Shown here one piece after another: positions 21,786-29,798 of a stretch of DNA of 64,000 bases (positions within the stretch are counted from its first letter, which is position 1; each line of letters opens with the position of its first letter). Position numbers and translations under genes: made by a program. Source of the stretch: Corallococcus exiguus (GTDB lineage: Bacteria; Myxococcota; Myxococcia; Myxococcales; Myxococcaceae). The notes below the pieces were generated by a model. That model was not told the DNA's origin. It saw only the letters and a program-made list of their open reading frames with translations, and ran no database searches. The DNA lies in the NCBI RefSeq assembly GCF_009909105.1, contig NZ_JAAAPK010000002.1, positions 285,827 through 349,826 of the forward strand, given 5' to 3'.

Positions 21786-24700
21786 TCATGGAGGAGGCCA
21801 GCGGGGCGGCAAGAGATCGATGACGCGGCGGCCGAAGCTCTCCGCGTCCGTTTCAATGGGCTGCCGGAAGTACCGGGGGTCTCCCGGCCCGTAGTAGTGG
21901 CCGCCGGAGCCAGGCAGGTTGCGCCACCACCGGCGTGAGAACGGATGCGACTGTCGGCCTATCGAGTACTGGTAGGCCTGATACGCCTGATAGTAGTGAC
22001 GCGACTCATGGACGGCGGTGCCCACCGCGTCGCCCACGTCCAGGTTCTCGTTGATGACGATGACGCCACGCCGGCTCACGGGCGCGAGCCGGCCCTGGTG
22101 CGTCACGTTGAAGTCCCATTCCATCCATCCGTAGTCCCCAGCCGGCAGGTTCTGGAACTGGACTTGTGGACGGCGCGACCGGGGGATGCCCATTGCGTCC
22201 ATGGCCGCGCCCACCGACTTCTTGAGGGCCTGCTGCCGGTCCCGGAGCGACAGCGTGCCGAACGTCGAGGGGTCCAGCTCCGGGATGTCCTCCAGCCCCG
22301 CTTGCAGGTCCCGCATCTGCGCCAGCTCGAAGCGCTTGAACCGGCGGCTGCTCCAGCTGCGAGAGACGGTGATGTCGAAGTCCCCCCAGCCCAGCACATT
22401 GCCGGTGGGACCTATCGTGCGAATGCGCTTCGCGGTCTCGAACGGTTCGATGATCCGGGCGATCTCCCCCGGCTTCACGTTCGGGTCCAGGCTGTGGATG
22501 AGCCCCTTCAGCTGTTTGGGATCGATGTTGTACTGGGCCAGCAGGCCTGGCTTGCGCTTCGTGCCCTTGAGCGCTGACTCCACCTTCTTCAGCACCTTCA
22601 GCGTGGCCCCGACGCGGCCCTTCTTCAGCTCGTCCCTGAAGACACCCATCAGGGCATCGAGCTCCGCGCGGGGGGCCGAACCGTGGGGCATGACCTCCCG
22701 GACCAGCGACATCTTGCGCCACGCGTCCGCGATGCGTTCGACGCGGTCGACGAGCTCCCAGCCCGGCGGAGGCATGGGGGTGATGGGCCCCACGCGCAGC
22801 TCGATGGAGACCCGCCACTCGTCGATGGCCTTGGTCAGCGCCTCCAGGTGCGCCGGCCCCAGGCCTCTCGCCCGGGCCCAGGCCAGGTCCGACAGCTGCG
22901 CTTGCAGGTCGTCCAGGTTCTTGCGGAGGTTCTCTCCCACCGCAGTGAAGTCCTTGAGCCTGGGGGCGTGCTTGCCGCCCTTCACCTCGACCAGGTGGAG
23001 CTTCGCGCTCGTCGGATCCGCGGCGTGGTCGAACTCGACGATGATTTCATCGATGCCACTGCCTTGCTCCGCGCCCCTGGGCTTGAAGTCCAGCCGCCGG
23101 AATCGCTCCGTCGGCCCCAGCCGCTCGCCGAGCAGCGCCTCCGTGAACGCCAGGGATTTCTGCTTCTCCACCACCTCGCCCGCCTCGGTGGTGATGAAGC
23201 CGCGCGGCTCCCAGCGATTGCCGGAGCGCTTGGACAGGATGAGCTCGATGTATTCCGTCTCACCGCTGGCGCGCGTCACCTCCACCAGCTTGTAGTAGCG
23301 GAGCTCCTTGGGGCGGTACTTGACCTCCTGCCACGCGGGGCCGATCTGCGCCACCGTGTCCGACGGATCCAGCACCAGCGTGGTGCGCGCCCGCTGCGCG
23401 TCGGTGAACACCTGGCGCGGCGCGCTCTTGATGAACGGGTCATCCAGCTCCGGCCCCCCCTTCGAGAACGGCCCCACCTCCGGGTGGTCGGCGTGGAGCA
23501 CGGTGTTGGGCCACACGTCGTTGGGCCGGCCTGACTGCCGGATGACCGGCTCCGTGTCCGTCACGGTGAGCACCAGGGCCTTCTTCTTCCCACCTCCGCG
23601 CGTCGTGACCGCCGGCGGCTTCGTTTCCGGAACGACCACCTCCGGTGGCTTCGCCGGGGTGAATTCCATCTCCAGCTGCCTGGCCCCCTCCGCCTCCGGC
23701 GGAGGCACGGGCGGTTTCTTCTTGCTGAACAGCCGCGGAGGCTCATTCAGGTACTGCGGCTTCGAGCGCACGCCCTGGCCGAACTCCGCCATGTCCAGGG
23801 GCGTGAAGGCATCCACCTCCTTCATCCGCTGGCGCAGGTTCTCCAGCGTCTTCTTGCCCTGCCGGATGCGGCGGGTCGCCTCCTCCGGCTCCATGGACAC
23901 GCCGCGCTTGCCCTCCAGCGACGTGAGCAGCGACTCCTGCGCATCGATCTCCAGGAGCAGCTTCTTGCGATAGAGCTCGAACTGCTTCTCGATGGGCAGC
24001 TTGTCCCAGTGCCGCAGCGCCCGTTCGTCCAGGGCCTTGATCAGGTCGCGCGTCGCCTTGTCGTGGCGCTGGAGCAGGTGCAGGCCCTCCTCGCCCAGGT
24101 CGGACAGGTCCGCGCCCGCCTTGACGATGATGGTGGGCTTGCCGCGCCGGAACATCGTGACGGCCTGCGCGGACTTGCTGCCGGTGAGGGCTTCGAAGTC
24201 CGCCTCGGAGATCAGCTCGATGGGCGTGTTCGCGAACGCCTTTCGCTGCGCGGGCGGGATGTGCTCCAGCAGCTCCTTGCGCATGGCGCGCTGGAGCTGC
24301 TGCCGGTCGAAGTCGCCCGACATCTGCTTGAGCAGGCCCTCGTCGAACTCGCGCAGGAACTCCTTCATGTTCCCGGCGGGGTTCTCCGCCTTCCACTTCT
24401 TGAAGAGGGTCAGCCGCTCCTTGGGCGTGCCCCGGAAGTTGAGCAGGTCCTGGGTGCGCGGTGGCACGTGGGGCTTGGAGATGCCGCCCAGCGCGCCCAG
24501 CCCTCCGGCCATCACCGCGCCCGGCGCCGCCTGCAGGGCGGTGCCGGCCAGCACGTTGAAGAGCGCGTTGCCGCCCTTGTAGTTCGCGTCGTTGAGGACG
24601 TTGCCCAGGAACGCGGAGGGCACGGACTGCGCCAGGCCTTCCGCGCCCTGGGCCAGGCCGTGCGCCGTCATCCGCGCCAGCACGCCGCCTTCCTCCGCCA

Positions 24701-29798: not shown

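Follow-up and report, generated by a model that had tools for sequence, protein, structure and literature searches.

Positions 21,786 to 29,798 of a 64,000-nt stretch of the Corallococcus exiguus genome (contig NZ_JAAAPK010000002.1), referred to here as the window, hold the minus-strand gene of a giant protein of 2670 amino acids (aa), which we analysed together with its neighbours. The gene belongs to a tight, co-transcribed module of five minus-strand genes, which encode an AAA+ ATPase of the kind found in contractile injection systems (CISs), the giant, two smaller proteins termed p174 and p256, and a protein resembling HEAT and formylglycine-generating enzyme (FGE)-sulfatase families (Table 1). 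ATPase and giant are separated by 31 nt, followed by gaps of 12 nt and 15 nt and a 1-nt overlap. The ATPase, which is similar to Afp15, Pvc15 and Alg15, scored 88 bits against PF00004 (AAA), 34 bits against PF22977 (winged-helix domain variant) and, below the cutoff, 19.6 bits against PF14065 (Pvc16_N), so that a winged-helix variant at the N-terminus is followed by a single CDC48-like AAA domain and, at the C-terminus, by a weakly matching Pvc16_N-like region; its best matches in the PDB were VCP/Cdc48. Because its orthologues measure 782-785 aa, the protein probably starts 15-31 codons inside the listed TTG open reading frame (ORF). A preliminary description of the window had placed the giant directly downstream of a CIS-type AAA+ ATPase, which is borne out by the 31-nt spacing and by CIS genes that converge on the locus.

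Table 1. Genes and features at the locus, with positions in the window (nt) and residue ranges in the giant (aa)
Feature	Position	Strand	Basis or remark
CIS structural operon, converging on the module	1..18739	+	Pfam, PHROGs
Tail_P2_I baseplate protein	to 3278	+	
Fibre-like protein, ~2530 aa	~3275-10882	+	Beta_helix and DUF6519 matches
gp5/VgrG-like spike	11461-12648	+	
Conserved unknowns after the spike, 64, 536, 720, ~450-520, 248 and 73 aa	within 11461-18739	+	
HEAT and FGE-sulfatase-like protein, 504 aa, last module gene	18949..20463	-	PF03781
p256	20463..21233	-	Helical protein
p174	21249..21773	-	Zinc ribbon (CxxC...CxxC), then helices; small, cytoplasmic
Exchangeable cassette (giant linker, D2, D3, p174, most of p256)	20600..23700	-	Boundaries ~+/-150 nt
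Giant ORF, proposed CIS cargo and polymorphic effector	21786..29798	-	
Giant: leader, apparently disordered, aa 1-470	28389..29798	-	Composition, pLDDT
Giant: all-alpha region, aa 471-950	26949..28388	-	AlphaFold2 model
Giant: annexin-repeat array, aa 951-1490	25329..26948	-	PF00191, PDB annexins, Foldseek
Giant: hydrophobic hairpin and Gly/Ala stretch, aa 1588-1789	24432..25037	-	Kyte-Doolittle
Giant: D1, aa 1790-2026	23721..24431	-	AlphaFold2, invariant motif
Giant: disordered linker between D1 and D2, aa 2027-2094			
Giant: D2, aa 2095-2450	22449..23516	-	PD-(D/E)xK-like motif, secondary-structure order
Giant: linker between D2 and D3, aa 2451-2482			
Giant: D3, aa 2483-2670	21789..22352	-	Invariant HExxH; DUF6782 below cutoff
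AAA+ ATPase of CIS (Afp15/Pvc15/Alg15-like)	29830..32271	-	PF00004, PF22977

The giant ORF begins with GTG and contains no frameshift. Its GC content at the three codon positions (0.70/0.46/0.91) follows the pattern of real genes in the window, where overall GC content is ~70%. It is 99% identical to HJC22_20470 of Corallococcus exiguus, and intact orthologues of 2580-2730 aa occur across Corallococcus, including COCOR_03294 of C. coralloides DSM 2259; the giant is therefore not a pseudogene. The typical value of 0.91 at the third codon position (GC3), together with the intact orthologues, led us to reject a pseudogene or chance ORF. The 2670-aa ORF of the preliminary description, and the coordinates it gave for features of the giant, agree with those found here. 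Many long ORFs also run antisense to the giant (window 21945-29252, plus strand), reaching up to 1284 aa (24009-27863, plus strand). As their GC3 is high but the pattern at the first and second codon positions is wrong, we regard them as artefacts of the 70% GC content. The giant itself amounts to 290 kDa and has only two cysteines (0.07%), and an NCBIfam scan of it returned no match. Two AlphaFold2 models were used for its structure, spanning aa 470-1600 (predicted local distance difference test score, pLDDT, 78; predicted template modelling score, pTM, 0.62) and aa 1790-2670 (pLDDT 77).

The N-terminal segment of the giant (aa 1-470) is a low-complexity sequence rich in Pro, Ala, Gly and Ser and nearly free of aromatic residues. 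These four residues account for 0.50 of the first 400 aa, and for 0.34-0.50 in distant relatives. By this composition, and by pLDDT values <50 in its modelled portion, the segment looks disordered, and we propose that it is the loading sequence of the giant. Very long helices (~aa 655-885, model mf68968538026) lie within the all-alpha region that follows, and three relatives of the giant gave weak Apolipoprotein matches. Thus, of the coiled-coil N-terminal half described previously, only long helices at ~560-950 stand, the first ~470 aa being Pro/Ala-rich and apparently disordered. The annexin repeats described at ~25450-26900 were recovered. PF00191 (Annexin) scored 75 bits in three stretches, against a cutoff of 25, the GTD(E/R) loops at aa 986, 1071, 1154 and 1422 (~nt 25530-26840) fall inside that span, and a phmmer search of the PDB with the giant returned annexins only (best E 4e-12). 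In Foldseek searches, the model of aa 470-1600 aligned with the eight-repeat annexin VI over 611 columns (E 4e-9) and with four-repeat annexins over 315-460 columns. The long annexin VI alignment points to probably more than four annexin-like repeats. In the model the array is all-alpha, and its template-modelling scores against annexins are low (0.2-0.36), indicating that the repeats are not packed as a canonical annexin tetrad. A type II Ca2+ site was taken to consist of a GxGT loop and an acidic residue ~38-40 residues downstream. In repeat 2 (aa 1069) the loop reads GWGTDE and MDDE follows at +39-42; in repeat 1 (aa 984) it reads QWGTDE, and acidic residues cluster near +42. The remaining repeats are degenerate or contain inserts. 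Further downstream, the hydrophobicity scan revealed a strong transmembrane (TM) segment at ~aa 1594-1620 and a second at ~1627-1656, with a Kyte-Doolittle maximum of 3.23 in this hairpin region, followed by an amphipathic Gly/Ala-rich stretch to ~1789. The Gly/Ala hydrophobic block previously placed at ~24450-25050 is therefore real and contains two TM segments (nt 24432-25037). A comparable hydrophobic segment precedes the next domain, D1, in 96 of the 104 long family representatives.

The C-terminal part of the giant comprises three domains, D1 to D3. D1, the hallmark domain of the giant family, is modelled with pLDDT 80-93 as a beta-sheet followed by a helix with an invariant E-E-G-x-H-x-x-Q motif (here EEGLHLLQ), and is duplicated in some relatives. 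Since a few relatives retain the full HExxHxxQ at that position, D1 looks like a zincin-type domain in which the first zinc ligand (His) is mostly lost. D2 carries the motif G2248-I-D2250-E ... H2268-L-V-E2271-V-K2273, of which D2250, E2271 and K2273 are invariant in the orthologues and which is also present in distant relatives. The predicted core, alpha-beta-beta-beta-alpha-beta in the AlphaFold2 model, follows an order that fits PD-(D/E)xK, and motif and topology make D2 a probable nuclease. Its only fold match was a weak one to MspJI (E 0.65, probability 0.13), and no Pfam nuclease family scored in the giant C-terminus. D3 ends the protein with the motif AVGTAVHESRHYYQ (aa 2591-2604, nt 21987-22028), in which HESRH occupies aa 2597-2601. 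Being invariant in 18 orthologues, it substantiates the C-terminal HExxH that had been noted at ~21996-22013. The invariant residues are H2597-E-x-R-H2601-Y-Y-Q plus Q-P-I-E2649-x-D2651-A, with E2649 and D2651 on a later helix; from motif and topology, D3 is a probable zincin-like metallopeptidase.

A resemblance of this HExxH to DUF4157, as suggested in the preliminary description, did not hold up. PF13699 (DUF4157), named eCIS_core in the Pfam release used, gave no match at E<=1 in the whole giant, nor in the C-terminal 881 aa of the giant and 15 relatives. In the same scan it scored 80-99 bits in the proteins P0048 and P0119 described below, so that the domain is detected where present. The nearest family is DUF6782 (PF20573), which stayed below threshold at 23.4-24.1 bits (cutoff 27) in seven of seven D3-bearing sequences scanned, its match spanning only profile positions 75-114 around the HExxH. 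D3 does have the DUF4157 motif form HExxHxxQ (HESRHYYQ), yet at the extreme C-terminus and not near the N-terminus. Comparison with a 10-sequence DUF4157 alignment by hhalign gave P=0.011 for D1 (in register) and P=0.009 for D3, neither being significant, and hhalign found no relationship between D1 and D3. A Foldseek search of the PDB with the C-terminal model (aa 1790-2670) yielded nothing below E 0.3, and the C-terminal alignment profile returned noise only from PDB sequences.

The C-terminus of the giant varies together with the genes behind it. We mapped this by a 300-nt sliding DNA comparison with a C. coralloides-type locus (L013). Identity was 92-97% from nt 31971 to ~23870 (ATPase and giant residues 1-2030), 56-68% from ~nt 23600 to ~20870 (giant C-terminus, p174 and p256), and again 89-96% from nt 20570 on. 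The breakpoints are sharp, the one in the giant lying at ~nt 23700, and such a drop in identity between sharp flanks indicates that the exchanged unit consists of the giant C-terminus, p174 and p256. The protein identities divide in the same manner (Table 2). The 504-aa FGE-like gene is conserved, not variable, with 94% identity in L013, where the cassette reaches 44-59%; compared to C. exercitus, all segments are 72-93% identical. Across the cassette alleles, the putative catalytic residues are invariant. At the level of sequence, this pattern marks a polymorphic toxin accompanied by cognate partner genes.

Table 2. Protein identity to the window sequence (C. coralloides-type, L013; P0005-P0011; C. 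exercitus, L014)
Segment	C. coralloides-type	C. exercitus
ATPase	96%	93%
Giant aa 471-2026	87-96%	88-90%
D2	43-47%	72%
D3	55-59%	91%
p174	44%	87%
p256	53%	81%
FGE-like gene	94%	84%

Neither p174 nor p256 belongs to a family in Pfam or PHROGs, and their homologues elsewhere accompany particular C-terminal domains. P0119, a protein of 1234 aa, has an N-terminal eCIS_core/DUF4157 domain (99 bits) and a C-terminus 52% identical to D3, which reads as a bona fide canonical architecture of cargo of extracellular CISs (eCISs). The D3-p174 pair recurs here, in locus L016: a p174 homologue with 33% identity (E 5e-25), including the zinc ribbon, is encoded 5 nt downstream of P0119. Homologues of p256, in turn, are found downstream of giants with D2 but without D3; in L004 (E 5e-11) the homologue is the next gene, and in L011 (E 3e-27) it is the second one. 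We propose that p174 is the cognate partner, and putative immunity protein, of D3, and that p256 has the corresponding role for D2. With the recombining cassette and its co-varying genes, and with D3 being shared with the eCIS_core cargo P0119, the idea of an effector or toxin advanced in the preliminary description is now strongly backed by independent evidence. Orphan pairs of p174 and p256 (61-79% identity) occur in L017, from a metagenome-assembled genome of Kofleriaceae, and in L018, on contigs of 8.7 and 16 kb that contain no giant, D2 or D3. Given these pairs in other bacteria, the targets probably include bacteria, and the annexin repeats alone do not imply a eukaryotic target. The link from annexins to eukaryotic membranes is thus not carried by the repeats themselves, as the orphan pairs argue that the C-terminal toxins, at least, act inside bacteria. 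In L018 (3062-6509), the orphan pair is located beside several ThsB-type TIR genes and a caspase-like Peptidase_C14 gene, in a region that looks like a defence or immunity island.

The plus-strand operon that converges on the module places spike, baseplate and fibre genes at 3-20 kb from the giant. Its ~2530-aa beta-helix protein probably serves the CIS as tail fibre or for receptor binding; the counterpart in a Micromonospora locus has 2602 aa and aligned in patches only, at 34-58% identity. The conserved unknowns after the spike travel with the giant across phyla, in the same gene order (L001, L004). Among these CIS neighbours, the 536-aa protein showed a weak match to the tape-measure family phrog_305 (E 1.4e-3), beyond which no Pfam or PHROGs family was found for the 536-, 720-, 524- and 248-aa proteins. 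In C. terminator (L008), the 10 kb further upstream gave matches to CIS_tube, Phage_GPD (gpD-hub) and Baseplate_J, all below the Pfam cutoffs.

We also examined six distant loci (L001, L002, L004, L010, L011 and L012), and in each of them the giant belongs to, or borders on, a CIS operon that includes spike, baseplate or fibre genes. The pairing with the ATPase is kept as well: in L001, L010, L011 and L012 the giant homologue directly follows the ATPase homologue, usually with a stop/start overlap, often of 4 nt, and a convergent version exists in Micromonospora pattaloongensis (L004), where the giant comes after the spike and the same unknowns, and the ATPase converges on it with one gene between. 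In L002 the giant follows baseplate-associated genes, and in both L002 and L004 it is within the operon holding baseplate or spike genes. Between window and Micromonospora locus, identity is 59% for the spike, 50% for the ATPase and 27-34% for the giant, the latter only over D1 and D2. As judged from this comparison, the giant evolves faster than the machine, and the 59% identity of the spikes suggests that the system as a whole has been transferred horizontally.

Representatives were searched exhaustively with a profile of the C-terminal alignment, which delineated a giant family spanning Myxococcota to Actinomycetota, with at least 558 clusters at 50% identity (E<=1e-3), of which 253 were retained at E<=1e-30; a second, word-indexed homologue search with the alignment added few new proteins. 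Most clusters contain proteins of 2000-3300 aa, and overall the lengths range from 1500 to 3300 aa as modules come and go. Hairpin and D1 are common in distant homologues, D2 is often present, annexin repeats occur in about half, and the rest is variable. In one family member, P0048, the N-terminus is formed by an eCIS_core domain (80 bits), and ~9 relatives contain the canonical motif. P0021 combines PT-HINT with a different C-terminal tail. Some of the proteins P0023, P0024, P0041-P0049, P0109 and P0122 bear 2-5 tandem D1 copies. Different HExxH domains near the C-terminus were seen in P0078 (HELGH) and P0122 (HEMAH), from which it follows that the toxin repertoire of the family is diverse and mostly unannotated.

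In published accounts, eCIS cargo is built from a disordered N-terminal domain and a C-terminal domain, with DUF4157 as an optional addition, and an AAA+ protein loads it (10.64898/2026.05.27.728243), DUF4157 being a recognised marker of such cargo (PMC11297309). Similarly to canonical cargo, for example AlgoCIS Cgo1/Cgo2 (PMC8213781, PMC11297309, 10.64898/2026.05.27.728243), the giant is encoded beside the CIS ATPase where the locus ends and has an apparently disordered N-terminus, it shares D3 (52%) with an eCIS_core protein, and some members of its family bear an N-terminal eCIS_core. In contrast to such cargo, it is 2-5 times larger, possesses an internal TM hairpin and an annexin array, lacks a scoring eCIS_core, and ends in two enzyme-like domains with two proposed cognate partners. 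For Tme (BN159_7576) of Streptomyces davawensis, a protein of 2247 aa that contains TM segments, a role as CIS effector is experimentally established (PMC11126660). Both proteins are giant (>2200 aa) and CIS-encoded, with extensive disordered segments, long or coiled helices, TM helices and a (putative, in our case) C-terminal enzymatic toxin, and ejection and membrane insertion have been proposed for both. By its description, Tme combines an N-terminal DUF4157 and an EndA-type nuclease with remote homology to tape-measure proteins, and is encoded upstream of baseplate genes, whereas the giant has an annexin array, D1, PD-(D/E)xK-like and HExxH domains and a two-partner cassette, and is encoded right after the ATPase. 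Of the Tme-like features, tape-measure homology (PHROGs) and PF13699 gave no match in the giant, and its gene follows the ATPase.

The concept of polymorphic toxins, with CdiA-CT/CdiI, Rhs and MafB as examples, reportedly goes back to work of Zhang, Aravind and colleagues in 2012. The giant locus shares with such toxins a conserved N-terminal delivery region, abruptly divergent C-terminal alleles, co-varying small downstream genes, orphan partner pairs elsewhere and, in one relative, the PT-HINT pre-toxin domain. Unlike toxins of the CdiA, Rhs or MafB type, the giant has two toxin-partner pairs in tandem and would apparently be delivered by a phage-tail-like CIS with a loading ATPase, and not by a type V, type VI or type VII secretion system. 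Judged by its sequence, the giant qualifies as an annexin and as part of a polymorphic toxin system, and falls outside the DUF4157 and Tme groups, although it would act in the manner of those effectors. Corallococcus annexins have been published before, as Kodavali et al. (2014) described multi-repeat annexins in C. coralloides DSM 2259, and other bacterial annexins with TM regions, metalloprotease (DUF4157, Peptidase_M90) and toxin domains (PMC3894181). Their survey makes no link to CIS, ATPase, D1/D2/D3 or cassette and reports no informative gene neighbourhood (PMC3894181). Annexin has likewise been published as an eCIS-enriched 'cloud' domain (4 of 65 genes in the 2021 listing, PMC8213781), and the supplements of Geller et al. 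record both an eCIS operon for C. coralloides DSM 2259, at CP003389:3522183-3558527, and four annexin genes that lie in eCIS operons; COCOR_03294 could not be matched to these entries. What appears to be new here is a candidate family of giant annexin/TM CIS cargo whose toxin domains are exchangeable, arranged in tandem and accompanied by two cognate partner genes.

In view of these data, we consider it probable that the giant is a membrane-inserting cargo or effector of the CIS locus, built like a polymorphic toxin. By analogy with AlgoCIS cargo and Alg15, the CDC48-like ATPase would recognise the disordered N-terminus and, while the particle assembles, unfold the giant or thread it into the lumen of the tube or onto the spike. 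Contraction would expel it into the target envelope, where the hydrophobic hairpin would insert in the membrane and the annexin array would hold the protein on anionic phospholipid as Ca2+ enters. D2, as nuclease, and D3, as metallopeptidase, would act in the target cytoplasm, while p256 would neutralise D2 and p174 would neutralise D3 in the producer and its kin. Several observations weigh against this reading. At 290 kDa and with its hydrophobic hairpin, the giant would travel badly inside a tube lumen, and it has no Pfam eCIS_core domain. Fold searches with D1, D2 and D3 gave nothing significant, and for this reason the putative enzyme assignments of D2 and D3 stay with motif and topology. 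The partners p174 and p256 could be cognate chaperones or adaptors instead of immunity proteins. Sheath genes were not reached in the window or in L008 and are expected beyond both. Finally, the 10 kb downstream of the module lack CIS structural genes in L013 and L015, both from Corallococcus genomes, so that the module is separable from the machine by >10 kb. A more specific form of the cargo model, which we put forward as doubtful, is a self-translocating cargo, in which hairpin and D1 would serve as conduit or anchor, the annexin array would dock on anionic lipid while Ca2+ flows in at the puncture, and the tandem enzymes would reach the cytoplasm of other bacteria. If true, annexins would be native to bacterial warfare, with a bearing on annexin origin, and at least 558 clusters would represent a widespread cargo class that unites translocator and toxin in one chain, with toxin-immunity cassettes that can be swapped for engineering.

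An explanation that we regard as unlikely makes the giant a CIS accessory that is not ejected but anchors or docks the particle at the cytoplasmic membrane of the producer, tethering or triggering it there. With two TM helices and no signal peptide, both termini would be cytoplasmic, and the annexin array would sense Ca2+ or membrane damage, comparable to the membrane-associated factors of the cytoplasmic Streptomyces CIS or to thylakoid-anchored CISs. Such a role would fit the central hairpin, which, D1 aside, is conserved best (96 of 104 long representatives), as well as the missing signal peptide and the synteny with ATPase and structural genes across phyla. However, a recombining C-terminal cassette with co-varying partners is unexpected of a structural anchor, as are a C-terminal domain in common with a canonical eCIS_core cargo protein, partners that occur as orphan pairs on contigs without a giant, and divergence faster than that of the structural proteins. 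The five genes might also constitute a self-contained polymorphic toxin system that works independently of a CIS, with the AAA+ protein as unfoldase or extractase and exit by lysis, vesicles or contact. We judge this improbable. The module is indeed intact, with the same superoxide dismutase and flavin-reductase flank, in L013, L014 and L015, and the structural genes missing from the 10 kb downstream of it in L013 and L015 point the same way; against it, all six distant loci have the giant in or next to a spike, baseplate or fibre operon, the ATPase carries the winged-helix variant and a weak Pvc16_N domain, and eCIS_core domains are borne by family members and by the D3-sharing protein. The giant could, with very low probability, be a tape-measure protein or a tape-measure-derived lumen protein like Tme, setting the tube length and being ejected first. 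It is the largest ORF of the module, its long helices and TM segments are reminiscent of many phage tape-measure proteins, and Tme provides a precedent. We dropped this reading because PHROGs returned no match at all, tape-measure families included, for the giant or two relatives. Moreover, the sole tape-measure match at the locus is the weak one of the 536-aa protein, the gene is downstream of the ATPase and not upstream of tube-initiator and baseplate genes, family lengths of 1500-3300 aa with modules that come and go do not suit a ruler, and at an estimated ~1.5 A per residue, 2670 aa would correspond to a tail of ~400 nm.

To our knowledge, very few eCIS cargo proteins have been characterised. 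As a probable cargo, the giant bears on the question of how large or membrane-active proteins are loaded and cross a target membrane, and it offers a tractable case, namely a culturable predator with a cargo candidate of 290 kDa whose translation is linked to that of the presumed loading ATPase. The natural allelic cassettes mark the toxin part, and the candidate immunity genes make kin discrimination and sibling killing accessible to genetics. In addition, a large uncharacterised family is defined around TM hairpin and D1, bacterial annexin repeats gain a concrete context, and engineered payloads could be exchanged at the modular C-terminus.

Regarding the surroundings of the module, the 504-aa FGE-like protein scored 33.6 bits against PF03781, and homologues of its gene are present in L001, L002 and L011. 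Directly upstream of the ATPase, the window encodes a flavin reductase and an Fe/Mn superoxide dismutase (32325-33455, plus strand) and, beyond these, a Ser/Thr kinase bearing WD40/PD40 repeats, a beta-propeller protein of SGL/NHL type and a protein with sigma-70 region 4 (33528-38352, minus strand); this flank, from the flavin reductase to the kinase and beyond, is conserved in L013 and L014. On its other side, the ATPase-giant module is followed in the C. coralloides-type locus (L013, 21093-28127) by PP-binding and AMP-binding genes and a lanthipeptide cluster, and in C. sp. ZKHCc1 1396 (L015, 21120-28022) by MarR, LysR and IS66 genes. Within the converging CIS operon, the ~450-520-aa gene (window 16219-17793, plus strand) shows a dip in GC content to 0.673 and 60% identity to C. 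exercitus, compared to 85-90% for its neighbours, and may be a second variable gene of the locus, encoding perhaps a further cargo or a factor that sets specificity.

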